DNA from: Planctomycetota bacterium
Lineage (GTDB): Bacteria; Planctomycetota; PLA2; JAEUHO01
DNA length: 64,000 nucleotides
Direction: 5' to 3'
Assembly: GCA_965222115.1 (NCBI GenBank)
Contig: CBDCTJ010000005.1
Location: 76,444 to 140,443, forward strand
Made by a program: the position numbers and the translations under genes. Of this stretch, positions 16,253 through 30,853 are shown piece by piece. The notes under the pieces were generated by a model. The model was given only the letters and a program-made list of their open reading frames with translations. It was not told where the DNA came from and ran no database searches. Numbering within the stretch: position 1 is the stretch's first letter; every line of letters begins with the position of its first letter.

Positions 16253-17050
16253 ATGAGCGAATCACCCACCCCCACCCCGGATGCACGCACTACTGGGCAA
16301 TCCACGGCTGACCGCTCGTCGGCGAATCAGGCGTCGGCGAGTCATGCGTCCGTCGATTCCGACGGAGCAACTCGCACCGAACCAGGTGACTCCGGCGAGC
16401 CCGCGTTGGGTTACCGATTGATGGCCGATTTGCAACGCGTGCTGGCGGCGTCCTCCCCGAATGAATCATCTCAAGGGCAAGGCACTCCTGCCGACTCCAT
16501 CGATGCGTTTCGCCCCATCTACGAGGCCTATGCCCCGCGCGTCATGCAGTTTTTCTTTCGCATGTGTGGCGATCGGTCCTTGGCCGAAGACTTGACACAG
16601 GACGTGTTCGTCAAAGTGTGGCGTGCAGCGCCATCGTGGCGCCCCGAAGCGCCGCTCCATACGTGGATCTTCACCATCGCTCGCTATCACGGGTGGAACG
16701 CACTGGCGTTTCGACGGCGGCGCAAGTCGGTTTGGCAACAGGCCGCAGATCAACCCGCTGTCAACGAACCGGCCGATTCCACGGCATCGAATCGAGTACC
16801 CCACGAACGACTCGCCGCGCGCGAGTTTGGAACCCACTTGCAGCGTGCGGTGCTCTCGCTTTCACCGCGCCTGCGAGTGGCGTTCGTCTTGGCGCGTTTC
16901 GAACGTCTCTCCCTGGCAGAAATCGCCCACATCGCAGGCGCCCCCATCGGCACCATCAAGAGCCGCATTGCCCGTGCGGAAAAACGGCTTCGGCGAGCGC
17001 TTTCGCATTCGCATGCATCCATGAAAGGGGGCTCTCATGACTCCCAATAA
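16253..17050 (+). CDS. ECF sigma-70 factor
   Basis: Region 2 (AEDLTQDVFVKVW..TWIFTIAR) and region 4 (LSLAEIA...PIGTIKSRIARA). Confidence 0.92.
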   Translation: MSESPTPTPDARTTGQSTADRSSANQASASHASVDSDGATRTEPGDSGEPALGYRLMADLQRVLAASSPNESSQGQGTPADSIDAFRPIYEAYAPRVMQFFFRMCGDRSLAEDLTQDVFVKVWRAAPSWRPEAPLHTWIFTIARYHGWNALAFRRRRKSVWQQAADQPAVNEPADSTASNRVPHERLAAREFGTHLQRAVLSLSPRLRVAFVLARFERLSLAEIAHIAGAPIGTIKSRIARAEKRLRRALSHSHASMKGGSHDSQ

Positions 17051-18593
17051 ACAGCACAAGTCGCCCAATAAATCGCGCGGCGGCAGTTCGCACGATCTTG
17101 CTTCATTTGCATTGCATCTCCTCGATGCCGACGAGGCGCAATCGATCGAAGCGCGCGTTGCTCAGTCGCCCCGTGAATCCCGTGAACTCGACGATATCGC
17201 AGCGCATTTGGTCATGTACGACCGAATCGAAGGCGCACCGCCTGCCCCCACCTTTGAACAGTTTCGTACACACGTGAAGTCGTCCGACGACGTAGATGCA
17301 CCGCAGGCGCGTTTATCCGCCACAGTCAACGACTTCAGCTCGACGGACTCGTCAAAACGTTGGTTTCGGCTTGGCATGGCAGCGGTCGCGCTACTGGCAA
17401 TTGGCGCGGCAGCGCTGTGGGGATTCACGCGAGATCGCGGTAAGACGAATTCATCGCAGCTTGCAAGCATTTCGTGGGTTGGCCCGAGCGTTCAAACAGT
17501 TGCGGATGGTGCGCCGGCGCCCCTCAAGTCATCTTCGGCATTACAACCTGGCACGTGGCTCTATGGCGGCGAGGATGCAGGCGAGGTGCGCTACACAACG
17601 CGCAATCATACCGTTCGCCTCGTGCTTTCGTCCGGTGCATCGCTGCGATATACAAGTCCCACGCAGGTTTACTTGGAGAAGGGCAAGGCGTGGTTTGAGG
17701 TCACGAGACTTCAAACTGACACGAACGCATCGCCGATCACATTCCGCGTGTACTCACCTCGCGGTGCAGTAAACGTGCTGGGCACGTCATTTCTTGTGGA
17801 CGTCAACCGCGACGCGTTTTCCGTGGGCGTGTGGCATGGTGCTGTTGAGGTAAAACGTGCTGTGCAAATCACGCAAGACTCTAAGAACGATGCGAATGAC
17901 GCCTTTCGTGTTGGCGCACGTGAATCGCTCGCATTTCACAGTTCGAGAGACGCGAGTACGCCTGCTCCCACACGCGCGCCCTTCGCTTCACTTCCTGCAT
18001 TCCTGTCAAAGGGCTTGGAACTCAGCACGCGCGTCGTGGCCGACGGCAAACAAGGCGATGAATGGATCGTCGATTGCGTATTTCGAAATCGCGGTGGGCT
18101 GCGGCTATCTCTCAATGGCGACGACGAGGGGCAAAGCCCGCTTTGGTTGCACGTGAGCGATGCACAGGGCGGCCAAGTGAGCGCATTACCCGTGCTGCCA
18201 GTCAACATCGTCTCCCGATCCAACGAGACCGACTCAGATGCTGAGTTGGCGCCCTGGATCGTTGCTACGAGCTCCGGACAGGCATCAGGCGCAGATTCAA
18301 TCCTCGCGCCGGGCGAGTCGCGCGTGGTCCGAGTCCGATTCAAGGCGCCGCGCGTCCGAATGAAGGTCTCCGATGGTCCCCTGCCCCGCTACGTTTGTCG
18401 GGCGGTGTACCGAGGCGAAGCGCTCCCCCCGCTCCAATCCGCGCCAGTCCCAATTCACGCCGCTCCCTCTCCTTTGAAGGAAGATGAGGCGGCAGAAAAT
18501 GGGTCGATTGGCAACGGTTCGGAGCGAGCAGACGAGGCTCCGTCCGATGCCGCCAACGGCGAATCGAAATCCACGGAGCAGCCCGGCCGATGA
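17037..18593 (+). CDS. Anti-sigma factor with TM and FecR domain
   Basis: Overlaps the sigma gene. Anti-sigma-like N-terminus, TM, FecR motifs (VYLEKGKAWFEV, FRVYSPRGAVNVLGTSFLV, VWHGAVEV) and a further beta domain. Confidence 0.8.
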   Translation: MTPNKQHKSPNKSRGGSSHDLASFALHLLDADEAQSIEARVAQSPRESRELDDIAAHLVMYDRIEGAPPAPTFEQFRTHVKSSDDVDAPQARLSATVNDFSSTDSSKRWFRLGMAAVALLAIGAAALWGFTRDRGKTNSSQLASISWVGPSVQTVADGAPAPLKSSSALQPGTWLYGGEDAGEVRYTTRNHTVRLVLSSGASLRYTSPTQVYLEKGKAWFEVTRLQTDTNASPITFRVYSPRGAVNVLGTSFLVDVNRDAFSVGVWHGAVEVKRAVQITQDSKNDANDAFRVGARESLAFHSSRDASTPAPTRAPFASLPAFLSKGLELSTRVVADGKQGDEWIVDCVFRNRGGLRLSLNGDDEGQSPLWLHVSDAQGGQVSALPVLPVNIVSRSNETDSDAELAPWIVATSSGQASGADSILAPGESRVVRVRFKAPRVRMKVSDGPLPRYVCRAVYRGEALPPLQSAPVPIHAAPSPLKEDEAAENGSIGNGSERADEAPSDAANGESKSTEQPGR

Positions 18594-21355
18594 GCACCTC
18601 TTCTAAACAACACGGCTCCCTCCCACCAAGCGACGGATCGCGTAAGCAGAGCTCCCCGGAGGTGCGCAAAGTTCGCACCAGGCTCGGGTTGTTGCGCGCG
18701 CGTGTGCGCGGCATTCTCGCCACGGTAGCCACATGCAAATGGATCGTCGCTGCGGTCGGGGCATTGGCCGCATTCTTTGTCGCCGATTGGTTCCTCGACC
18801 TGCCCATGCATGTACGTCGTTTTCTGCGCTCGGGTCTCTTGACCCAACCGGAAACGTGGTCGGTCTTCGCGTGGTTGGCGGCGCTCGCGATAGCTATCGC
18901 CGTCGCGGTGGTATTTACGAAAGCACGCAGGCGCACCGCACCCTTCTTTGCGTTTATCGCCTGTGGTCTCGTTGGACTCTTGGCGTGGTTTGCCTATCAG
19001 CAGTTTGCCCCCATCGGCGCACGCATTCGTGACGAAGAGTTGGCACTCGGTGTGGAGGCCCGTCACGCGGGGCTTCGACATCGCTTGGCGTCGGCGCTCG
19101 ATTTCGACAAGACCATTCAGGGAACGACTGTAGAGAGTCCCCGAGGTGAAAGCCGCGAGTTGATGGAAGCCATGGTGGCCGAGACCACCGCCGAAGCGAA
19201 AGGCGTCAAGTTTGCGCGCGCTGCCAATAGCGCACCGGCCACGCGTTGGGTATCGCTTGCAGGTTTGGCACTTGCGGGTGCGGTGATCGCCATGATTGCG
19301 TTGCCGGCAACCAAACTTTGGGCACGACGCAGCCTGTTATTGGAAGACGTGGACTGGCCGCGCGACACCACCATGCTCGCCGTAGATGTTGACGTATTGG
19401 ATGAGGCGAAGGCCTCGTCGGGCGACAACGCCAACGTTTCCACAGAAGGTGACTCAAACAGCGCGATCAATACGCGCATCACGCCACACGATCCTAAGGT
19501 GCCATTTTCCGTAACGGTGGGACGACCGCTCACGATCTACGCATTGGCCGAGGGCGACGCGCCCGATGAGGCCTACTTGTTGGACTTCGTCGAAGGGCAA
19601 CAACCACTTTCGCGCCGCATGTATCAAGTGCCGGGACGCGACCATCTCTTCGCGTTTGAGTTTCGCGATGTGCGCCGTCCGTTCACCTTCATTCTTCGCG
19701 GGGGCGATGACGACGATGACCGCCCGGTCTATTCCGTGGAGATCAGCATTCCACCGCGCATTCAGTCCATTCAGACGTCGGTGACCTACCCGAGCTATCT
19801 GGGACTGGACGCCACAACGCACGATCGCGGCAGCGTGAGTGTTCCTCAGGGCTCAATCATCAATGTCACGTTTGTGCCCGATGTCCCATTGTCCGCTGCG
19901 TTTGCATTGGTCGGCGGCAAACGCAGAGAGGTCACGCCCGTAAAGGTCCCCATGGGCGACAGCGAAGCCGACGGCTACCGCTTCACGTCCACGACGGAGT
20001 CATCGTTCCGCTACTCACTGGTGCTCGAAACACAGAGTGGCAAACGCAATGAATCGGCCGCCGATAGCTACGAAGTGCGAGTCAAAGAAGACCGCGCGCC
20101 TCGGCTCGACTGGATCTTCCCGCGCGGGTTGGGTGAGCGCACGGCCAAGGGACGTATTCCCCTGTTGGTGCGTGCCTCGGATGATTACGGCATTGGCAGC
20201 CTTGCGCTTGAGTTGCGGGCAGGTGGTCAATCGGTTCAGCGTTTCGAGTTAGGGAAGGACGTAAGTGAGTCCGGCGAAGAAGAGTCCATAGCCACTGAAC
20301 TGCGCCGTCGCCTACTGGAAAACGCCAAGATGGATGGTGATTTAGGCCGCGGCCAAATCCTTGCGTATGTACCCATCGACATTCCTATGCTGCGCGACGA
20401 CGAAGGTGTGCCTGTGTCTTCGCCCTCCCGTGTGAGCTTTCGCTTTGTCGCCAAAGACACCAAGGGGCAAGTTCGCGAAGGCGAGTGGAACGCCATGGAC
20501 ATTTCGAGTGCCGGCGACATTGAACGCGGTCTGAGCAGCAGTCGTGCGTCGTTGCGCTCACAGCTTGCCGCGTTGCAACGCGAACAAAATGCTCGCCGTG
20601 ATGATGTGGCAGCGATCCTGACCGAGTTCACGCGATCGGGCGCCGTCGATACCGATACCACACGCGCCGACCGCGCCGAGGCACTTCGCAGCATTCGCTT
20701 TCGACAGGGACGCATCGCGCAGGATGCCCAACGTGCCACACGTGCGCTGATTCGCATCTTCAATGACTTTGTTTACAACCGCCTCGGTGCGGCCAATCCT
20801 AATGAGCGCATCCTTGGCTACCTCAATCGCTATCACAATCAGACCTTTGGCGTCCCAGCGGCGGTTCGCGATCCCACGTTGCCTAAGTCAGCGCGTACAT
20901 CAGCAGATAGCAGCCGCTCCTCGGATGTGAATGCCAATGGCGATCCCGTGTTTCCCTACCGCCTCTATGACGACATTCTGGATGCGTGGCGCAACAAGGT
21001 CATTTATGACAAGGGACTCATTGAGCGCATGTTGTTGGTGATGCAGGACGCAGTGGATATCGCTGCGCGCCTTGCACCGAAAACACACACGCTGGCGATC
21101 GACGCGGCGGGCGGCTCGCGCGCAAAGCGTGGCGCGGATGCACCCCTCGGCGACGCACTAGAGACAGAACGCAAACGCATCAATGACCTGCTTAACTCGC
21201 AGGAGTCCGTGCTGGCGTCACTCGATCGACTGCTAAAGGCCATGAGCGGCTGGCAGAGTTTGAGCGACCTCACGATGGCGCTGCGCGGCATTGTGGAAGA
21301 GCAAGAGAGTCTTCGTGACCGCATGGAAACGATCGATTCGGAAGGATCGAAGTAA
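18590..21355 (+). CDS. DUF4175-like membrane protein (TMs, Ig-like domains, coiled coil)
   Basis: N-terminal TMs; RLASALDF, WPRDT, PPRI..V.YPSYLG, DRAPRL..P, ASDDYGI motifs typical of this planctomycete family. ATGA overlap with the upstream gene. Confidence 0.7.
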   Translation: MSTSSKQHGSLPPSDGSRKQSSPEVRKVRTRLGLLRARVRGILATVATCKWIVAAVGALAAFFVADWFLDLPMHVRRFLRSGLLTQPETWSVFAWLAALAIAIAVAVVFTKARRRTAPFFAFIACGLVGLLAWFAYQQFAPIGARIRDEELALGVEARHAGLRHRLASALDFDKTIQGTTVESPRGESRELMEAMVAETTAEAKGVKFARAANSAPATRWVSLAGLALAGAVIAMIALPATKLWARRSLLLEDVDWPRDTTMLAVDVDVLDEAKASSGDNANVSTEGDSNSAINTRITPHDPKVPFSVTVGRPLTIYALAEGDAPDEAYLLDFVEGQQPLSRRMYQVPGRDHLFAFEFRDVRRPFTFILRGGDDDDDRPVYSVEISIPPRIQSIQTSVTYPSYLGLDATTHDRGSVSVPQGSIINVTFVPDVPLSAAFALVGGKRREVTPVKVPMGDSEADGYRFTSTTESSFRYSLVLETQSGKRNESAADSYEVRVKEDRAPRLDWIFPRGLGERTAKGRIPLLVRASDDYGIGSLALELRAGGQSVQRFELGKDVSESGEEESIATELRRRLLENAKMDGDLGRGQILAYVPIDIPMLRDDEGVPVSSPSRVSFRFVAKDTKGQVREGEWNAMDISSAGDIERGLSSSRASLRSQLAALQREQNARRDDVAAILTEFTRSGAVDTDTTRADRAEALRSIRFRQGRIAQDAQRATRALIRIFNDFVYNRLGAANPNERILGYLNRYHNQTFGVPAAVRDPTLPKSARTSADSSRSSDVNANGDPVFPYRLYDDILDAWRNKVIYDKGLIERMLLVMQDAVDIAARLAPKTHTLAIDAAGGSRAKRGADAPLGDALETERKRINDLLNSQESVLASLDRLLKAMSGWQSLSDLTMALRGIVEEQESLRDRMETIDSEGSK

Positions 21356-24300
21356 TGAACGAACAATGGCTACGCGATCCTCGCCCTGGTAGGCACGCGC
21401 CGCGTGCACGCAACAACAGTTTTGACATGGAGAGCACGATGAACACGACCACCCGCTTGGGCATGACGCGATGGGTTCTCGGACTTGCCATCTGCTTGGT
21501 TGCACTCCTCGCGGTGCCGCGTTTTGCGCGCGCCAAAGACGAGGCGAACGACTTGGATGCGAAGAAGGAAGCTGAGCGCTTCCTCGCCGACCAACGTCGT
21601 ATCCAGGGCAAGATTCTTCAGCTCGAAGACAATATGAAGGTCTTGGCGGCTGAACTTCGCCGCACCGGCCACGAGTACGAGGCCAAGCTGCTTGAGAACG
21701 GCCTTTCACACCTAAAGACCAGTGGTATCGGCGGTTATGTGTCGGCTGTGTTGGCGGCCCTCGGCGACAAGCAGCCAGAACGCGCGCGCGCCGCGGCCGA
21801 TCAAGTGCGAGAGAGTCTCGGCGAACTGCTTGCCATTCTCGAAGACCGCAATCGCGAGTTTACTGAAAAACAACTCAAGGAACGGATGGAAGCCACCAAG
21901 AAGGCAACCGAGGTGTCCAAGGAGTTGATTGAGCGCGAAAAGAAGATCGAAGAAAAGCTGCGTGACCTCGCCGAAGGTAAGACGAGCGACGCGGGCAAGC
22001 AGGCGTCGGAACTTCGCGATCAAGTAGAGAAGCTCAAGCGCGAACACCAAGAGATCAATGAGGCTATGAAGGATGCAGCCTCGAAAACCAAATCAGACAA
22101 CCAGACCGATAAGCAGCGCGAAGAAGACGCGCGACGGGCGGCCGAGCAACTTGCGCGCCTCAACGACATGTTGGCGCGTCAGAAAGAAGCGTTGGAGAAA
22201 ACTCGGAACGCCGAAGAAGCCAACAAAGCGAATGCCAATAAGAGTGACGCGAAATCAAAGGACTCAAAGTCCGATGATGGCGACAAGCGCGATCCCACAG
22301 CGTCGAGTTCGAAGGCGAGCGAGGCAGCAAAGGCGCGGCAAGAACAGGCAAAGAAGCTCGCCAGTGATGCGGCCCGACTTGCGCGGGCCGAGCGTCTCGC
22401 CCAGCAGAAGCTCATGCTGGATCAAACGCGCGAGGCCATTGGCAAACAGGCTCAAGCACTCGCCGAGCGCGTCAAGCGCGAACGCGAAGCATCCAAGGCG
22501 CGGGCAGCAAAGGAAGCCACCGAGAAACTCGCCAGCGAAGCGAGCGCGGCCGGATCCAAAGCACCTGCATCAAATGACGACGCAAAGGCGGCTGCCGAAA
22601 AGTTGGATGCGATGGCGGCCAAGGCGACGGCTGAGGCAAAGAAGCTGAGTCAACCGTCTGAAAAGAACGCCGATGCTTCATCAAAGGACGAGCCGTCAAA
22701 GAGTGGAGAGTCGTCCAAGAGTGGTGATCCAAAGGGCTCTCCTTCTACTGCCGATCGGGCTGCCACTGATCCGGCTGCCAAGGCAGTTCAAGATGCTTTG
22801 AAAAAGCTCGCTGAAGCAGCAAAGAAGTCGGCCGATGCGGAACGAGGCCGTGCAAGCGCCGGCGGCAAGGGCGATCAAGCAAAGGCGGCATCGAAGACCG
22901 CAGAAGAAGCGCGCAAGGGATTGCGAGCGGCAGCCAATGAACTCAAGAGCGCCCAACAAAAGGCGTCACGCGCACGCGCCGCCGCCGAGAAGCGCGCCGA
23001 TGCATTGGCGAAAGACGCCGATCGGTTGAAGTCCACCACCGATTCGCTGGCGAAAGAAGCCGACAAGTTGCGCGCCGCGATGGATGCCCTTCAGAAGCAA
23101 GCGGAAGCCGCAGCGAAGGCCGCTGGGGCTCCAGCAAACGCAAACGGCGGTTCGCCAAGTGGCAACGCACAGGCGGAAGCTGCGCAAAGGGCTGCCGACG
23201 CCAAAGCGAAAGCAGCCATGGCTGCGGCCAAAGACAAACTCGACGCGCTTTCCAAGTCGGTCGGCGAAGGCAAAGACAGTGATGCCGCAAGTGCTGCGAC
23301 CGCCGCCGAAAAGGCACTCGCAGAAGCCGCAAAGGCACTTGGTGCCGACAGTAAGGGGTCACAAAAGGCTGGATCGGAAAAGGGCGACGAGGGATCAAAT
23401 TCGGGTGGCGAGTCGGGTTCATCCGGTAACGAGTCGGGTGAGAACAAGACTGGCGAGTCCGCTTCGAGTTCGTCGAGTCAACGAGAAGCAGCCGCCAATG
23501 CCGAGTCGGAACGCGCGAAGGCCGCGGCCGCACTTGCTGCGAAGCTAAAGGCACTGGCCGAAGCCCATCGCGCTGCGAAGCCCGGCAGTAACGCCACAGG
23601 TGACGAATCGGGTTCTGCGGGTGAACAGAATGACTCCGGTGAATCGGATGAAGCGTCTGCTAAGGCCGCCGAAGAGGCAGCCAAGCGCGCCGATGCAGCA
23701 GCGGGCGCAATGAATCGTGCTGGCGAAGCCATGGGTGAAGGCGATACGGCTGGCGCCATGTCGGCACAAGATGAAGCCATTGGCAACCTTGAAGAAGCTG
23801 CCCGAGCATTGGGTGAAGCCATGGGCGAGGCCAATGACGGCTCGACCGGCGGCGAGTCGGGCCAATCATCGGAAGCCGACTCCGAGTCAAACCCATCCGG
23901 TGAGAACGGATCGGAGAGCGGCGGTTCCGAAAGCGGCTCGTCCGGTGAACAGAGCGGTTCAAGCGGCGAGTCACCAGGTGTCTCTCCGGAAGAACTCGCC
24001 GAGATGCAAAAGAAGATTCGCGAAGCCACTGAAGCGCTTGCCAATGACATGCGCGGCGGCGGATCCGAAGGTAGTGACTCAGAAGGCACTGATTCCAAAG
24101 GCAGTGACTCGAGCGGGTCTGAGTCGTCTGGATCGGAGTCATCGGGTTCTGAGTCATCCGGTAGTGAGTCCAAGGGTAGTGAATCAAGTGGATCGGAATC
24201 TTCGGGATCGGAGTCGTCTGGTTCAGAGCAGAGCGGTTCAGAACAAAGTGGCTCCGAGAGCAAGACACCCAATCCTGAGAAGGCCCCCAAGGTGGATGTG

Positions 24301-25728
24301 GCCACGGAGTCCATGCGCGAAGCCGAAGAGGCTCTGGAGCGTGGTGATTTGGATACGGGTCGCCGGGCACAAGAAAACGCCGTGCGTGAGTTGGAAGAAG
24401 CGGCGGGCGAACTCGCAGAGAAGACCCGTCGTCTCCGAGAAGAGGCCAAGAAAGCTGAAGCCCTTGCTGAACAACAACGGAAACTCGCCGAGCGCGCAAA
24501 GAAGCTCGCCGAGCAGTCGCGAAAACTCGATGCGAATACCGACAAGGCAAAGGACGCCGCCCGTCGTGCAGCCGACGCGCTCAAACGTGCCGAAGAAGGC
24601 ATGAAGAAGCAAGCGCAGCAATCCAAGAGCGGATCCCAGCAGTCCGGCTCGCAGCAATCCGGTTCACAAGAATCTGGTTCGCAGCAATCGGACTCTCAAC
24701 AGCAACAGCAGCAACAAGAACAAGTGCAACAAGCGCTCGACGAAGCGCAGAAAGCCCTCGATGAAGCGGCGAAGAGCGAAGAGAGCACGCCGCCCGATTA
24801 CGACCGCATCAAGAAGCAGTTGATGGACGAGCAAGAAGAGGTGCGCAAGCGCCTCAAGTCGCTCAAGGAAGCGCTTGAGAAGAGCGAGTCGGACGGTGCG
24901 CAACAAAGTTCACAGCAGGCGCAAAAGTCCATGCAGCAGGCGCAGGATCAGATGCAGATCGACTCCCCCAAGACGGCGGCCGAGAGTGCAGAAGAAGCGC
25001 GTAAGTACATGGAAGAAATGAAAGAACAACTCGAGAAGGAACAGCGTCGCTACCAGTCGCTGCGCCAAGAGGAGTTGCTCTACCGTCTCGTACGCGATCT
25101 CAAGTCCTACCGCGATCGCCAAATTGAAGTGCGCTCCCTCACCAAGGAGTTCGCGGAGAAGATGGCGCTCAAGGGACGCTTGAGCCGTAAGGACAAGAAG
25201 AAGGTGCGTCGCGTATTGGCGAAGGAGCAAACGCTACTGGCCAAGCTTGTCGCCGAGCGTCTGGAAGCGGTCAAGAAGGAAGAATCCACGGCGTTCGCTG
25301 CCATCATGGAAGAAGTGATGCTCGATATGCAGGCCGTTGCAGGCATGCTTGAAGACATCGACCTCGGCCCGCTCACCGTGGGCATTCAAACTGAGATCAT
25401 TCAGCGCATCAGTGACTTGGTTGGCGGCTTTGAAGACATCATTAAGCAGAAGCAAGATCCCCCCGGCAACGAACCCCCGCCGCAAGGTCAACCCAAGCCC
25501 AAGCTCGTTCCGCCCATCGTGGAGATCAAGCTATTGCGTCGTCTCCAGAACGACCTCAACGTGAAGGCCCAGAACTTCTGGCGCCGCAATCCCAAGCTCC
25601 AGCAAGGCGAAGTGACCGAGCGTCAACGGCGCATGCTTGAGCGACTCTCCCTCCAGCAGGGACGTTTGAAGAAAGTGCTCGACGAGCTGATTCAACAGGT
25701 ATTTGGACAGGAAGAAGGTCCTAAGTAA
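21355..25728 (+). CDS. Giant exported coiled-coil protein with Ser/Gly/Glu/Gln low-complexity repeats
   Basis: 1457-aa ORF with TAATG coupling, signal peptide, long Ala/Lys/Glu heptads and C-terminal PKLVPPIVEIKLLRRLQ. Start may be 21439. Confidence 0.8.
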   Translation: MNEQWLRDPRPGRHAPRARNNSFDMESTMNTTTRLGMTRWVLGLAICLVALLAVPRFARAKDEANDLDAKKEAERFLADQRRIQGKILQLEDNMKVLAAELRRTGHEYEAKLLENGLSHLKTSGIGGYVSAVLAALGDKQPERARAAADQVRESLGELLAILEDRNREFTEKQLKERMEATKKATEVSKELIEREKKIEEKLRDLAEGKTSDAGKQASELRDQVEKLKREHQEINEAMKDAASKTKSDNQTDKQREEDARRAAEQLARLNDMLARQKEALEKTRNAEEANKANANKSDAKSKDSKSDDGDKRDPTASSSKASEAAKARQEQAKKLASDAARLARAERLAQQKLMLDQTREAIGKQAQALAERVKREREASKARAAKEATEKLASEASAAGSKAPASNDDAKAAAEKLDAMAAKATAEAKKLSQPSEKNADASSKDEPSKSGESSKSGDPKGSPSTADRAATDPAAKAVQDALKKLAEAAKKSADAERGRASAGGKGDQAKAASKTAEEARKGLRAAANELKSAQQKASRARAAAEKRADALAKDADRLKSTTDSLAKEADKLRAAMDALQKQAEAAAKAAGAPANANGGSPSGNAQAEAAQRAADAKAKAAMAAAKDKLDALSKSVGEGKDSDAASAATAAEKALAEAAKALGADSKGSQKAGSEKGDEGSNSGGESGSSGNESGENKTGESASSSSSQREAAANAESERAKAAAALAAKLKALAEAHRAAKPGSNATGDESGSAGEQNDSGESDEASAKAAEEAAKRADAAAGAMNRAGEAMGEGDTAGAMSAQDEAIGNLEEAARALGEAMGEANDGSTGGESGQSSEADSESNPSGENGSESGGSESGSSGEQSGSSGESPGVSPEELAEMQKKIREATEALANDMRGGGSEGSDSEGTDSKGSDSSGSESSGSESSGSESSGSESKGSESSGSESSGSESSGSEQSGSEQSGSESKTPNPEKAPKVDVATESMREAEEALERGDLDTGRRAQENAVRELEEAAGELAEKTRRLREEAKKAEALAEQQRKLAERAKKLAEQSRKLDANTDKAKDAARRAADALKRAEEGMKKQAQQSKSGSQQSGSQQSGSQESGSQQSDSQQQQQQQEQVQQALDEAQKALDEAAKSEESTPPDYDRIKKQLMDEQEEVRKRLKSLKEALEKSESDGAQQSSQQAQKSMQQAQDQMQIDSPKTAAESAEEARKYMEEMKEQLEKEQRRYQSLRQEELLYRLVRDLKSYRDRQIEVRSLTKEFAEKMALKGRLSRKDKKKVRRVLAKEQTLLAKLVAERLEAVKKEESTAFAAIMEEVMLDMQAVAGMLEDIDLGPLTVGIQTEIIQRISDLVGGFEDIIKQKQDPPGNEPPPQGQPKPKLVPPIVEIKLLRRLQNDLNVKAQNFWRRNPKLQQGEVTERQRRMLERLSLQQGRLKKVLDELIQQVFGQEEGPK
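24058..24260 (+). repeat. Coding pentapeptide repeat (SGSES/SGSEQ)n
   Basis: GSDSSGSESSGSESSGSESSGSESKGSESSGSESSGSESSGSEQSGSEQSGSES, encoded with varied synonymous codons. Confidence 0.85.
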
Positions 25729-25864
25729 GCAGTTTCGGCGCGACGCACCCGCGGCATTTGATTCTTCAAGAACCGCTGGCTCGCGTTTGTGTCATACTAG
25801 AGAGTGGATGTTGCGTAAGCGCTGTGTTTGCAGCCGTTTCGCATGCCACCGCGGAGGTACTCGC

Positions 25865-26752
25865 ATGAGCCTTAAATCGATGAGCCCTAACCCGATATGT
25901 CGAGCACGCTGGCTGATTCCAGCGGTTGCGCTTGGCTTGATGATCGCACTTGCACCCGCGAGTCGCGCCGAAGAGGAAGCCGGTGGCGACCTCAAGGAGA
26001 AGATCCGCAAGCAGATGGAAAAGATTCGCGACCTCATGAAAGAGAATGAGGACGCACTTCTTGATCTGAGCACCGGTGGGAAATCCAAGCCCAAGGCGGT
26101 GGACGTCGAAGTGCCCAATCCGCCTTCCTCTTCAGGCGGCTCGTCGTCAGGCGATGAATCGGGAAGCTCGGGCGAATCGGGATCATCGGGTGAGTCCGGT
26201 AGTGAATCGGGATCAAAGGGCGAATCTAATAAGGGCACGGGCGAAGAGATCCGTCGCAAGCTCGACAAGTTGATCGAGAGTCAAAAGGGTGCCTCCAAGG
26301 CCATCCCCAGCGAACTCGAAAACCTCGTCAAGATGATTCCCTTGTGAAACAGTTGCAGCGGCCAGTTTGGTTCGCAGTCAAAGTCTCAGAAGCCTCAAAG
26401 CGGTTCAAAGAACGGTGAAGATCAACAAGCCGATGCACGCGACGCGCGCAGCAAGGAGTTGTCGGAAGCCGAACGTCGTCGCCGTGAACGCGAAATGGCG
26501 GGCAAAGAAAACCAGCCCCAGAACGGCGAGAAGAGCAAGGATCCCACCGCGCGTGGCAACAACGCCAAAGAAGATCCAAACGCCGATAAGGTCCCCACGC
26601 GCGACGACAAGTTGGCGCCGTGGATCACGGCCTTGCCGCCGGAGTGGCGCGATGCTGCCAAGGCAGGCGTGTGGGAGAAGATTCCTGCGCGCTATCGCGA
26701 GCTGCTTCGACGCTACAGCAAGGACTTGCAGAAGAACGACACGGAACGTTAG
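25865..26752 (+). CDS. Secreted protein with in-frame TGA (codon 161) in a UxxC motif: candidate selenoprotein
   Basis: GGAGGT RBS then ATG 25865, signal peptide. ORFs 25703-26347 and 26459-26752 share one frame, separated only by TGA 26345-26347. Read-through gives IPL-U-NSC-SGQ..., ending WITALPPEWR..IPARYRELLRRY. Confidence 0.65.
26348..26378 (+). promoter_or_regulatory. Putative bacterial SECIS element
   Basis: Stem GCG-GCCA / TGGT-(T)-CGC (26358-26375) starts at +11 after UGA, with apical loop GUU at +18 to +20. Confidence 0.5.
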
Positions 26753-26789
26753 AAAGACAAACGTTAGAAAGACAAACGTTAGAAAGACA
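26745..26789 (+). repeat. Perfect tandem repeat, 3 x 15 bp (AACGTTAGAAAGACA)
   Basis: Copies at 26745, 26760 and 26775, plus a degenerate CGTTAGAGCGAC. The first copy contains the TAG stop of the preceding gene. Confidence 0.9.
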
Positions 26790-26947
26790 CAGGTCGTTAG
26801 AGCGACTCACTCGATTTCGCTCACCTAAAACGCCGCGAATGCCGCATGCATTCGCGGCGTCTTCATTTTTTGGTAGGTCCCTCACCTGCGCTCAAACGTG
26901 CGCCCCGTACACTCGGATGCATTCGAACTGTGTCGGAGGACTTACCG

Positions 26948-29900
26948 ATGAAGCAACTACTTCTACTCGTCACGTTGCTGGCGTTGGCCGCCGCGGCCTA
27001 CTTCGTTCTCAGTTCGGGCATGGGCGAATCCGACAGGGACGCGTCGTCTACAGCCACCGACGTAGATCCTTCGCACAGCAATGAGGCATTGACCGCCAGT
27101 GAACGCGACAAAGAAGCGTCGTCCATGACAGGACTGCACGTAGCCGATTCGGTTCGCCGCAAGCGCCCCGCCTCCAACTTTGAACCGGGCAACAGTGCCA
27201 TCGTCGGACGCGTAACGCTTGGCGGCGCACCGGTGGCGGCCGCGGTGGAGCTTAGGTTCGAGCGAGGCCTACAGGCCAGTCGTCCGGGCGAACCCACGCT
27301 CACCGGCTTCATCAAAATGATCGATCAGTTTCTTCAAGGCGGTCTCACGGCGGGGCCGGCACTGAAGTCAGCGACGGCAAACAAAGACGGCCAGTTTCAG
27401 TTCGATGGCCTCGGGCGTGGACACTACGAAGTTCGCGCCTTCGATGACCAAGGTCGCCTGCAGAACGAGCGCGTCGCCATCGAAGTTGAGGGCGTGAACG
27501 TACGAACGGACATTGCCCTGCCAAACGGTGAGCACGCTCTTCGCGGCAAGGCCATGTTCTCAGACAAGACGCCATTTCAAGGTTGGGTAACGGCAACGCA
27601 CAGCTCGGGTAACGAACGCATGTCGCCTTTCGGGATGATCGGCGGTCAATCGACGCGCGTCAAGAGTGATGGGTCGTTTGAGATCCCCGGCCTCGTCGAA
27701 GGTACGTACGGCATCACGCTCGTGCAGCCGCGCAAACTGCGTTTCACATCCATGGGACACCAGGTGCCTTCAGAATCCAATGTTGACGTCATCATTCCCT
27801 TCGGCGAAGAGAAGCTCACTGGCCAGGTTGTATCGTCGGTCGATCAAACGCCGATCGCCAGCGCCCATGTCTTGGTGGGCTCTATGAGTGAGCGCGGCTT
27901 CTTGGTGATGACAACCACAACGGATGGCGGCGGCCGGTTTCAAGCATCCTCCAGCGGCATCGATCGGGGAGGTCTCGTTGTCCGCGCAAAGGGCTTTGCG
28001 GCCAAGCAGGTCCAACTGCGCGGCATCGATCTGACCGAACCCATCACCATCGCTCTCGACCCCCATGGAAGCGTTTCTGGGCGAGTGATTGACGCGAGCG
28101 GAACCGGCATCGAAGGCGTCACAGTTACCCTCCATTCCCAAGGCCCGGATGGTCGAGAAACGATGAGCCAAGTGTCAGCGGTTAGTGGCGCTGACGGCGC
28201 GTACGCTATCGAGACTGTACCTGCGGGTCGCATATCCGCATCCGCCGCGGGTAACGGATATGTGAGCGAACTCGTAAGTGAGATTGCGTCCGGTCGCATG
28301 AAGGGCGAAGCGCTTGAAGCGAATGGCTCGTTGGAAATCGACGTAAAAGTCACGCGCGCAGCACGGGTAGAAGGAACGATAACATCAAGCGACGGGAAGC
28401 CCATCGCGGGCGCCAAGGTGTCGCTTGAAGAGAAAGAATCGCAGGCGTCGTTCATGCGCAGGTTCCTCATGTTGGGTAGCAATGAGGGCTCGACAGCCAC
28501 CGATGAGCAGGGGCGCTACGTCATTGAAAACTGTGTTCCCGGGGAAGGGCAGTTCATTCGCGTTGTCACCACCGACTATCCCGAGGCGAAGTCCGATCCC
28601 TTCAAACTCAAGGGAAGCGAAACGCGTCGCGTCGATCTTCGCATCGACGCAGGGCGCGACGTCACAATTCGAGTAACCGATGCCGAGTCCAATGCGCCGA
28701 TCCCCGCAGCCACGATCATGCTGCTCAACGCTAGCAATGACGCACGCAGCATTGCCATCATGATGGGTACGGCAAAGCCCATAACCGTGACTACGGACGA
28801 GTCCGGAGAGGCCGTGGTGAAGGCGCCGAGTGGACCGGCCAATGTCATGGTCAGCGCCTCGGACTACATCAACCCGGAAAAGCCCGTAACTCTCGAACCC
28901 GACGCCACGTCGGTCGCCGTGTCGCTAGTGAAAGGTATGGTGATCTCAGGTAGAGTTGAGACGATCGACGACGTTCCCATGTCTTCGATTCGTGTTTCGG
29001 TTGAACGTACGAGGAATCTCGCGGGCGGTCGTTGGTATCACGAGTCGACGAGTCCCGATACATCGGGCGCCTTCAAGATTAGCAAGGTGCCTGTGGGCCA
29101 GTTCAAAGCGTCGGCGCATGCAACGACCAAGACCTGGAAGTACGAGGCCTCGGCCGTCGTCGATGCAGGGGTCACAGATGTCGTGTTAACACTAAAGCGA
29201 GCAAGCAAGCGACGTGTGCTCACGATCAAGGTTATAGGGCCCGACGGCAAGCCGGTGAAATCAGGACAGGTCTCGTTGCAATGGGAACACGACGGCGGCA
29301 CGCACTCCACGAGCGGCCGCGTTTCTATGGGCAAGGGCACGTTTGAACTGAATGATCAAGACGCAAAGGGCGCATTGTACGTCCATGTGAAGTCACTTCC
29401 CCGTGGACTGGGTAGCGCGACCGTTGGACCTCTGGATGCGATACCATCCGACAACGAGATCATTGTCAATGTCCCTCGAGGACGTTCGATTTCGGGGCGC
29501 GTTGTCAGCGGCGGTAATGGCGTCCCTGGCGTTCAGATCTACGCCAAACTTCAAAGCGAGTCAATTAACACCTACCTCCGTCAATCCGAACGCGTAAACT
29601 CCGGCGCAGATGGATCGTTCTCCATCGATGGACTGGGGCCCGGCTCCTATGAGTTGTCAATTGATGACCATCGTTCGTGGATGGGCCCCGAAAAGAATCC
29701 CGTGGTGCGTGCGGGTGCCAACGGCGTCGTGATCAACGTCACGCAGCTCGAACGCGCCACAGTACGGGTCGTGGATACGTCGGGTCGTCCGGTGGTTAGT
29801 GCACGGATTCAGTGTTATCCAGCGGCCCAGCCTACCGGCAAACGTCGCGTTCACTATCCGAGTGCTCCGAAGTCTGACAGTGACGGCGTGAGCGACATCT

Positions 29901-30853
29901 CGGGACTCATGCCCGGCATGAAATACAACCTACAGGTGTCACCGCCAACGGATCAGATGGACACGTTCGGCACCGTGAGCAAGAAGAACTGGACGCCGGC
30001 CGACGAAACCATCATGCTTCCGCGCGGCTACGTGATCTCGGGCCGTGTACTGAATGCAAAGGGTGCACCCATTCGCGCGGGCATGATCTACATAAAGCCA
30101 GTCGATAGCAATGCGTGGAACGGAACACCAATGAAGGAAAACGGAGCCTTTGAACTCAAGGGACTCACAAAGGGCGAATACGTGATCAAGGCAGTACCGA
30201 CGGGGATGGATCACTTCATGCAGCCGCCCGATTCCGATGCGCCGGTACCGTTTCAAGACACGGTCAGCGCTGGAACCCACAACGTAGTGCTTCGAGGAGA
30301 TACCAAAGAATCCATCGACGTCACATTTGAAGGCCTCACCCCAAGCGCATCACCGAGCGACGTCCGCGTTCGGGGCATTCCCGTGATGATCCCTGGAGGA
30401 AGCCACCGGCACGTGTACATGATCGAAGAGCAGAATGGCACACGCAAGCAAGCCATGCTCAAAAACGGCAAGCTCATCGTGTATGGCATTGACGCAGCCA
30501 AGACGTACACCGTGGGCCTCTACCGTCTCCCGAAGGGAAAGTACTACCTTCGGAAGGGACTCAAGGCCGGCGACAACGTCACGCTTCAGCCTCAACAAGG
30601 CGTCACGCTTACGGGCGAGGTTGCCTTTCCACCGGGTGTGAGCCCTGCGCGGACGTACGTGCGGATTGAAGTTCCCGGCGGAACGCTGAGTGCAAACGTG
30701 CGGTCGAATGGCGAGATGTCAATCGAAGGTGTCCCCCCCGGTACATGGAAGGTGGCGGCTACCGCGCAAGTCGACAAACAAGCCTACCGCGGTACGGCCA
30801 ACGTAACACCGGGCACGCCCGCCACAATTACGCTGACGCGCGTCGATCAATAG
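26948..30853 (+). CDS. Membrane-anchored carboxypeptidase-regulatory-like (prealbumin-fold) repeat protein
   Basis: GGAGGA RBS then ATG 26948, N-terminal TM. Many GRV...G.P..GA.V / TD..G.F....L..G.Y repeats. Confidence 0.85.
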   Translation: MKQLLLLVTLLALAAAAYFVLSSGMGESDRDASSTATDVDPSHSNEALTASERDKEASSMTGLHVADSVRRKRPASNFEPGNSAIVGRVTLGGAPVAAAVELRFERGLQASRPGEPTLTGFIKMIDQFLQGGLTAGPALKSATANKDGQFQFDGLGRGHYEVRAFDDQGRLQNERVAIEVEGVNVRTDIALPNGEHALRGKAMFSDKTPFQGWVTATHSSGNERMSPFGMIGGQSTRVKSDGSFEIPGLVEGTYGITLVQPRKLRFTSMGHQVPSESNVDVIIPFGEEKLTGQVVSSVDQTPIASAHVLVGSMSERGFLVMTTTTDGGGRFQASSSGIDRGGLVVRAKGFAAKQVQLRGIDLTEPITIALDPHGSVSGRVIDASGTGIEGVTVTLHSQGPDGRETMSQVSAVSGADGAYAIETVPAGRISASAAGNGYVSELVSEIASGRMKGEALEANGSLEIDVKVTRAARVEGTITSSDGKPIAGAKVSLEEKESQASFMRRFLMLGSNEGSTATDEQGRYVIENCVPGEGQFIRVVTTDYPEAKSDPFKLKGSETRRVDLRIDAGRDVTIRVTDAESNAPIPAATIMLLNASNDARSIAIMMGTAKPITVTTDESGEAVVKAPSGPANVMVSASDYINPEKPVTLEPDATSVAVSLVKGMVISGRVETIDDVPMSSIRVSVERTRNLAGGRWYHESTSPDTSGAFKISKVPVGQFKASAHATTKTWKYEASAVVDAGVTDVVLTLKRASKRRVLTIKVIGPDGKPVKSGQVSLQWEHDGGTHSTSGRVSMGKGTFELNDQDAKGALYVHVKSLPRGLGSATVGPLDAIPSDNEIIVNVPRGRSISGRVVSGGNGVPGVQIYAKLQSESINTYLRQSERVNSGADGSFSIDGLGPGSYELSIDDHRSWMGPEKNPVVRAGANGVVINVTQLERATVRVVDTSGRPVVSARIQCYPAAQPTGKRRVHYPSAPKSDSDGVSDISGLMPGMKYNLQVSPPTDQMDTFGTVSKKNWTPADETIMLPRGYVISGRVLNAKGAPIRAGMIYIKPVDSNAWNGTPMKENGAFELKGLTKGEYVIKAVPTGMDHFMQPPDSDAPVPFQDTVSAGTHNVVLRGDTKESIDVTFEGLTPSASPSDVRVRGIPVMIPGGSHRHVYMIEEQNGTRKQAMLKNGKLIVYGIDAAKTYTVGLYRLPKGKYYLRKGLKAGDNVTLQPQQGVTLTGEVAFPPGVSPARTYVRIEVPGGTLSANVRSNGEMSIEGVPPGTWKVAATAQVDKQAYRGTANVTPGTPATITLTRVDQ

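Follow-up and report, generated by a model that had tools for sequence, protein, structure and literature searches.

The window analysed here is a stretch of 64,000 nucleotides (nt) from a Planctomycetota bacterium (GenBank assembly GCA_965222115.1, contig CBDCTJ010000005.1, positions 76,444 to 140,443), and its own positions are used as coordinates throughout. It carries on the forward strand a candidate selenoprotein gene, the frame of which extends from ATG 25865 to TAG 26750-26752 and is interrupted solely by an in-frame TGA at 26345-26347. If this TGA is read as selenocysteine (Sec, U), the product comprises 295 amino acids (aa) and has a U161-x-x-C164 motif within the string ...VKMIPL-U-NS-C-SGQFGS.... 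A preceding sequence-only reading of this DNA had described two open reading frames (ORFs) sharing one frame, broken only by the TGA, with a 295-aa read-through product, and the sequence confirms this description. The gene and its signals are arranged as follows.

25853-25857, forward strand: Shine-Dalgarno-like GGAGG, 7 nt upstream of the start codon (read from the sequence).
25865-26752, forward strand: coding sequence of the selenoprotein candidate, 295 aa, U at residue 161, stop codon TAG (sequence, translation and alignment).
25865-25969, forward strand: predicted signal peptide, residues 1-35, with a hydrophobic core and ...ASRA followed by EEE (from the sequence; helix 14-28 of the structural model).
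26345-26347, forward strand: in-frame TGA read as putative Sec (U161); the column is common to 13 of 23 aligned genes and L056, 58 of 144 database representatives end one residue before it, and contigs of public runs agree with it.
26354-26356, forward strand: TGC, which encodes Cys164 of the UxxC motif, invariant in 13 of 13 homologues having the TGA (U-forms).
26358-26375, forward strand: hairpin resembling a selenocysteine insertion sequence (SECIS), 7 pairs with one bulged U, loop GUU at 26365-26367 (folding; -5.5 kcal/mol, weak).
26612-26746, forward strand: conserved C-terminal helical domain, residues 250-294 (W253, L257, P258, R262, D263, Y277, Y284, L288), defined by invariant columns and a predicted local distance difference test (pLDDT) score of 82-93.
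26745-26789, forward strand: perfect tandem repeat (15 nt, three units) spanning the stop codon, with three in-frame TAG codons at 26750, 26765 and 26780 (repeat search, sequence).
26830-26870, forward strand: intrinsic-terminator-like hairpin (13 pairs, 9 of them G-C) followed by a T-run, marking the operon end (sequence).

The interrupting TGA is shared by homologous genes. A six-frame search of 61 related genomes detected the gene in 34 of them and gave exactly one in-frame TGA in 13 of the 40 matches outside the window's genome. When 23 homologous genes from 21 genomes were aligned, the TGA occupied one common column in 13 genes, inside the pattern IP[TLQM]-U-[SNDK]-[SG]-C, and the remaining 10 genes had a Gly/Gln-rich stretch at this site with no Cys. 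The 14th U-form, L056, was detected on a metagenome contig. None of the 13 aligned U-forms departs from U161 or C164, and invariant residues flank the motif on both sides, including W253, L257, P258, R262, D263 and Y277. The U-forms share the TGA column with the window's gene at a protein identity of 35-45%, and five of the 14 U-form genes end with a genuine terminal TGA stop. The sequence-only reading had looked to homologues for similarity on both sides of the codon and for a conserved TGA or Cys at position 161; similarity is indeed found on both sides, with TGA at residue 161 in 13 of 23 genes and Cys in two of 27 representatives.

The class to which the organism belongs is represented by 40 genomes, 29 of its own taxonomic family and 11 of a sister family. 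U-forms occur in 13 of the 29 genomes and in 10 of the 16 genera of the taxonomic family; among the 11 genomes of the sister family, 10 carry the gene, and in none of them does it contain the TGA. The family-wide (29 genomes) and class-wide (40 genomes) searches added no further U-forms. Judged by sequence similarity among the genomes searched, the protein family is confined to one small class of Planctomycetota. One of the 13 single-TGA matches, a weak one in genome G050, was dropped from the U-forms, as it is a distant motif-less homologue and its TGA is the terminal stop. From this genome, which belongs to another family of the phylum, the locus L113 (G050:C41) encodes a protein with a signal peptide, an N-terminal helix, a Gly-rich linker and a C-terminal ...LPPELR...EY...YFRRLA domain, with no UxxC; this architecture suggests that the protein family extends beyond the class at low similarity. 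A protein-level scan of metagenome contigs with the family alignment gave 591 pattern matches, none of them a relative. At the DNA level, a pattern scan of such contigs gave 21 stretches, L056 being the sole family member, and the other 20, which have no homology to the family, were rejected as chance matches. A scan of genome contigs returned eight loci whose motifs and U positions repeat known sequences, and they were left out of the counts.

Protein databases contain traces of the same codon. When 1.84 billion cluster representatives (clusters at 50% identity) were searched exhaustively with HMMER, 144 matched, and 58 of these are fragments of 91-182 aa ending exactly one residue before the TGA column. 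At least four further N-terminal fragments with slightly different ends are present among the matches listed, and about 20 short C-terminal fragments begin at scattered residues. One C-terminal fragment, P0004 (85 aa), is encoded on a contig equal in length to that of the window. Both kinds of fragments are explained by gene callers stopping at the Sec codon. In three of the 14 U-forms, there is no ATG, GTG or TTG between the TGA and the conserved C-terminal domain, which argues that the C-terminal half is not made separately; two more U-forms have a single such codon, located three codons before the domain. In the window's gene, the first possible starts after the TGA are a TTG at 38 codons and an ATG at 50 codons, neither with a Shine-Dalgarno-like word upstream, in agreement with the earlier remark that the downstream half lacks a convincing ribosome-binding site or start of its own. 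Judging from these sequences, the region after the TGA is translated in the same frame as part of one protein.

The TGA codon retains its usual meaning elsewhere in this genome, as had been supposed. It terminates 414 of the 1514 open frames of at least 400 codons, and the anti-sigma gene of the same operon closes with an ATGA overlap at 18590-18593; therefore, the genome is not recoded. The commonest stop of the long frames is TAG (761 of 1514), followed by TGA (414) and TAA (339), which is unusual at 59% G+C. Verification of the codon itself was possible with contigs of three public runs (two samples of one study), which span the TGA with no differing letters and no gaps, at low depth, and which may derive from the source samples themselves. 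Since these contigs cross the codon without difference, the TGA at 26345-26347 is not an assembly slip.

The ORF list opens the upstream frame at TTG 25703, and it is ATG 25865 that is preceded by GGAGG and aligns with the starts of homologues. A 15-nt unit repeated 2.1 times at the gene start (25865-25896) creates two ATGs 15 nt apart (M1 and M6), and the real start could be either of them. The N-terminal signal-peptide pattern is identical in kind in 22 of 22 homologues having a start. At the other end of the gene, the triple TAG repeat may represent a back-up stop arrangement or merely a recent duplication.

The machinery required for Sec insertion was detected in the genome: SelA (416 bits), SelB (347 bits, with a cut-off of 242) and a tRNA-Sec with anticodon UCA, found both by ARAGORN and by the Rfam model RF01852 (71.6 bits, with a cut-off of 47). 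This trait is widespread among relatives, SelA being found in 26 of 28 genomes of the taxonomic family, in 11 of 11 genomes of the sister family, and in 11 of the 12 relatives that carry a U-form. A Sec-type SelD with exactly one in-frame TGA is present in 26 of the 27 relatives having a match, and it is located just downstream of SelA in the relatives for which both coordinates are listed. Among the contigs of the window's genome, C6 (48,116 nt) has a G+C content of 39.7% versus 55-59% in the other six, a difference that might reflect a foreign element, a plasmid or contamination during binning.

Sec decoding of the Escherichia coli fdhF type relies on SelB, on tRNA-Sec and on a SECIS hairpin that directly follows the UGA. 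In the rule set of bSECISearch, this hairpin lies immediately 3' of the UGA, its apical loop is at a distance of 16-37 nt, and one of the first two positions of the loop is a G. In the window, the first base of the hairpin is the 11th after the UGA and the loop starts at the 18th base, so that the hairpin at +11 with a GU-initiated loop at +18, proposed from the letters alone, was located as the stem 26358-26375 with the loop GUU 26365-26367. All 14 U-forms have such a hairpin, with a loop of 3-5 nt that starts 16-20 nt after the UGA and has a G in its first two positions. In 11 of the 14, the hairpin follows the scheme GGCC/AGCC-AGUU(N)-GGC, and in L005, L010 and L017 a different stem and loop are formed, encoding different residues, with two of these three shifted by one codon. 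The candidate thus resembles the fdhF type in the location of its hairpin about 11 nt after the UGA, in the small apical loop with an early G, in the bulged U of the window's copy, and in the presence of SelA, SelB and tRNA-Sec in the genome. It differs in that the window's element is short and weak and that the family uses at least two hairpin sequences in three registers, and SelB binding here is putative.

Selection on this hairpin was addressed by a synonymous-codon test, in which the peptide was kept fixed and the codons were re-drawn from the family's own usage. The U-forms gave a mean z of -1.10 (11 of 14 negative, p 0.004) and the TGA-free forms a mean z of +0.85 (two of 10 negative), with p 0.0005 between the groups, these p-values being optimistic because the 14 sequences are related. 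The Rfam search at the locus gave no credible match, only four chance matches to microRNA and long non-coding RNA models (E of 0.5 or above). We suppose that, as far as the sequences allow one to judge, the hairpin is compatible with a SECIS and has probably been selected; this falls short of proof and is the weakest part of the case.

Among the 27 full-length representatives anchored on the helix preceding the motif, Cys stands at the Sec column in two. P0007 has ...P-L-C-D-S-C-S-G-Q-L-G, i.e., a CxxC motif followed by SGQLG as in the U-forms, and P0012 has C-S-G-N-C (CxxxC). In the maximum-likelihood tree, which has 45 rows, P0007 falls within a U clade (support 100/99), and this clade joins the window's protein at 95/84. 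A clade of 16 rows is entirely motif-less, and the U-form L008 pairs with the motif-less L012 from the same genus (81/88). The well-supported branches require at least two changes of the U state. Three genomes carry tandem copies (L009 in G001, L013 in G013 and L004 in G003), in which the order is giant gene, motif-less copy, U copy. Since most relatives lack the motif, the UxxC pair is an added feature and not the core function of the family.

We estimate at roughly 80% (0.82) the probability, as judged from the sequences, that in this organism Sec is inserted at UGA 161 of the gene, the product being an exported protein of 295 aa, and our confidence in the Sec assignment for the family as a whole is higher than for the window's gene. 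Most likely, this is a new selenoprotein family in which a known decoding mechanism operates in an unusual protein context.

Several observations weigh against this interpretation. The 10 TGA-free homologues have qualifying hairpins at the same column and with similar energy (Mann-Whitney p 0.29). Comparison of the window's 48 nt with dinucleotide shuffles gave z = -0.37, and comparison of its copy with synonymous-codon shuffles gave z = +0.46. RNAalifold found only three nearly invariant pairs and no compensatory changes, a poor consensus which is due in part to the different hairpin registers, and the covariation suggested as a check by the sequence-only reading was thus not obtained. Its claim of a SECIS-like hairpin stands for the positional rules, which hold in 14 of 14 U-forms, and for the synonymous-codon test at the family level, but not for the energy of this copy or its behaviour under shuffling; the window's hairpin is the weakest of the 14 (-5.5 kcal/mol). 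The lack of Cys at the site in 25 of the 27 anchored full-length representatives is unusual for a selenoprotein. In G004, where a U-form is present, neither SelA nor SelD was found at a genome completeness of 92%. No second Sec user was revealed in the window's genome by the sole enzyme checked, formate dehydrogenase, the matches of which are below the cut-off, have no stops and are not of the Sec type.

The remaining difficulty concerns SelD. Of the genes selA, selB, selC and selD, which the sequence-only reading had proposed to look for, the first three are present, but selD reads as broken in the assembly: it exceeds the cut-off (150.6 bits) and has the Sec-type active-site TGA, together with further internal stops and at least two frame changes. 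This sole copy lies near a contig end (contig C1, 654443-655201, minus strand), ending 436 nt from it, and the last 3.5 kb of C1 are generally fragmentary. The selA gene occupies positions 4-1092 of contig C7 on the minus strand, i.e., the first bases of that contig. As selD ends C1 and selA begins C7, while relatives keep both genes adjacent, the assembly seems to be broken inside the selA-selD operon, and the broken-looking selD may be either a result of poor polishing or real decay.

If the decay is real, the family would still consist of selenoproteins, but the Sec trait would be in the course of loss here: selD would be a pseudogene and UGA 161 would terminate translation, leaving the 160-aa product only. 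The internal stops and frame changes of SelD fit this scenario, as do the weakness of the hairpin, which shows no excess structure, and the lack of another Sec-type enzyme in the one family checked. However, the genome has intact SelA, SelB and tRNA-Sec, the 134 codons following the TGA contain no stop and retain every family-invariant residue, and the damage to SelD falls in the fragmentary end of a contig, at an apparent break in an operon which is intact in relatives. We therefore regard trait loss as improbable, although it survives better than the other alternatives.

Selenium-free readthrough by a near-cognate tRNA (Trp or Cys) is less probable still. The UGA would then be a leaky stop giving two isoforms, and the hairpin would only slow the ribosome, which would agree with a hairpin that is indistinct from the background by energy and column covariation and with a motif that is dispensable in most homologues. 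This explanation does not account for the invariant UxxC and the nested CxxC form, which represent the signature of Sec/Cys exchange, nor for the near-universal Sec machinery of the clade and the loop features that fit the SelB-binding rules in 14 of 14 U-forms.

Still slighter is the chance that two separate genes are present, with UGA as a true stop and the C-terminal half translated alone, as in the public annotation. The gene callers did give separate halves, but the predicted C-terminal halves begin at scattered residues, three of the 14 U-forms lack any codon that could serve as a start before the conserved domain, and the TGA-free and Cys-containing homologues are single proteins covering both halves. 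The initial word-based homologue search had found a single protein, in which Thr is aligned with the TGA and Gln with the Cys, as if the gene were a nonsense-mutated pseudogene or the TGA a sequencing error. This reading is refuted by 13 further sequences, 35-45% identical at the protein level, that have the codon in the same column, by the 58 of 144 database fragments that end there, and by the agreement of the run contigs.

The structural model of the candidate protein is not thioredoxin-like. No Pfam family and no NCBIfam model matches the window's protein, and among 13 U-forms there is one weak NCBIfam match to an unrelated repeat protein. The AlphaFold2 model, built with 45 sequences, has a mean pLDDT of 65.5 and a predicted template modelling score (pTM) of 0.25; it contains helices at residues 14-28, 42-70, 125-143, 149-156, 191-213 and 252-294, and no strand. 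As residues 159-162 and 164-188 have pLDDT below 50, Sec161 and Cys164 probably reside on a flexible stretch just after a conserved helix. A UxxC/CxxU oxidoreductase with the thioredoxin fold (Trx, Grx, DsbA, TlpA or SelW-like) was considered and rejected, since there is no Pfam or NCBIfam match, the low-confidence model (pTM 0.25) has helices only, and the motif is in a loop. The sequence-only reading had anticipated an exported, helical protein outside the thioredoxin fold, and the helices-only model and the lack of Pfam matches agree with it. DUF4175 (PF13779) was suggested for P0007 only, by a feature-space lead of 0.79, and was discarded because neither P0001 nor P0007 has a Pfam match (for P0007, up to E 1). 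A similarity search with P0007 returned Planctomycetota clusters only, and its structure matches had template modelling (TM) scores of 0.31 or lower.

The candidate gene is the last one of a tightly packed operon, which is conserved across the class. Upstream of it, the following genes are located.

16253-17050, forward strand: sigma factor of the extracytoplasmic function (ECF) type, the first gene of the operon (Pfam Sigma70_r2, E 8.8e-16; Sigma70_r4_2, E 5.1e-12).
17037-18593, forward strand: FecR-like anti-sigma factor, overlapping the sigma gene and having an ATGA overlap with the next gene (Pfam FecR, 1.7e-9; NCBIfam anti-sigma, 1.6e-8, below the curated cut-off).
18590-21355, forward strand: protein of 921 aa with no Pfam and no NCBIfam families.
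21355-25728, forward strand: low-complexity, coiled-coil-like protein of 1457 aa with a conserved C-terminus of about 330 aa and no Pfam or NCBIfam families.

The 1457-aa protein consists mostly of low-complexity sequence rich in Ala, Lys, Glu and Ser. Of 22 loci, 20 encode the C-terminus of this giant protein directly 5' of the homologue (39-55% identity), whether the latter is a U-form or motif-less; in the two loci lacking it, the gene is near the end of the available DNA. Downstream of the operon, the window encodes a 1335-aa protein (26846-30853) with nine CarboxypepD_reg stretches, the true start of which is probably a later Met (MKQLLLL...), since the listed ATG 26846 is inside the terminator stem.

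For the selenoprotein candidate, we suggest the following scheme. SelB and tRNA-Sec would decode UGA 161, aided by the hairpin beginning 11 nt further downstream, and the product would be a chain of helices joined by disordered linkers, with Sec161 and Cys164 on a flexible loop after the conserved helix. The U-x-x-C pair may close into a reversible selenenylsulfide or serve as a ligand of a soft metal, providing a redox- or metal-sensitive site on an envelope protein; the function is probably that of a redox-active or metal-binding selenol/thiol pair. The giant protein encoded upstream may be its functional partner, under the control of the ECF sigma/anti-sigma pair. Under selenium shortage, termination at codon 161 would leave the N-terminal 160 residues only.

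In an extension of this scheme, which we regard as unlikely, the U-x-x-C cassette would serve as a movable switch that depends on selenium and is inserted into a disordered linker of an envelope scaffold protein. In such a case, UGA decoding would set the choice between export of the full-length and the 160-residue protein, the pair would report the periplasmic redox or metal state to the ECF sigma/anti-sigma system, and the cassette would have been gained and lost several times. Repeated gain and loss is suggested by the two or more changes on the tree, by the sister pair of a U-form and a motif-less form in one genus, and by the three tandems of motif-less and U copies.

Comparison with the described selenoproteins emphasises the unusual context of this one. 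Exported UxxC selenoproteins of the thiol:disulfide oxidoreductase type (DsbA-like, DsbG-like and thiol:disulfide interchange protein) are listed as predicted families in Table 1 of a 2026 review of prokaryotic selenoproteomes (PMC13188914), which tabulates known and predicted families with their Pfam and NCBIfam identifiers; among the tabulated families, none fits. The candidate resembles these oxidoreductases in having a signal peptide, a single Sec in UxxC, Cys-containing relatives and bacterial SECIS-type recoding. However, they possess the thioredoxin fold and have Pfam/NCBIfam models, in contrast to the candidate, which has no match and helices only, with the motif in a disordered linker and with most relatives lacking Cys. 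The same table includes two small UxxC selenoproteins of unknown function, the UGSC-containing protein (NF041046) and the Hypothetical protein GOS_C (NF045500). They share with the candidate the UxxC motif, the lack of a known function and the discovery from environmental sequence, but none of the 13 U-forms matches either model, and the motif here is U-[SNDK]-[SG]-C, not UGSC. The catalogued families of that table with NCBIfam or Pfam models were thus rejected, families keyed only to cd or PTHR identifiers being outside the scan; the earlier impression that this is not a known selenoprotein family holds for Pfam (no matches) and for the NCBIfam selenoprotein models (no matches).

Haft and Gwadz (bioRxiv 10.1101/2022.07.06.499078) recognised selenoprotein families by means of database entries truncated at the Sec codon. 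The same annotation artefact is seen here, with 58 of 144 representatives ending at the Sec column, but the families named in that preprint are unrelated (MerB-like, ABC transport, HgcA/B), and none of the NCBIfam models of those families matches here. According to its description, BSepDB comprises 111 families and subfamilies (PMC13326102), and the genome paper on Planctomycetes gives the selenoprotein candidates of two Planctomycetes in its S9 Table (PMC4807772). We found no prior description of such a family in the literature, and the S9 Table of PMC4807772 and Table S2 of BSepDB could hold a relative. As acknowledged by its authors, the deep-Sep method may overlook selenoproteins that have no Cys homologues (PMC12013277), and this limit matches the candidate family, since most relatives have no Cys at the site.

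If true, this finding would add a selenoprotein family outside the enzyme-like thioredoxin folds: an exported, largely disordered and helical one from a poorly known class of Planctomycetota. The prevalence of relatives without Cys at the site exposes a blind spot of the current detection methods. It also reveals a correctable annotation error, at least 58 public cluster representatives and the annotation of this genome being truncated halves of one gene. Finally, the candidate offers a handle on an uncharacterised operon conserved in the class, which combines an ECF sigma factor, its anti-sigma factor, two giant proteins and the putative selenoprotein.

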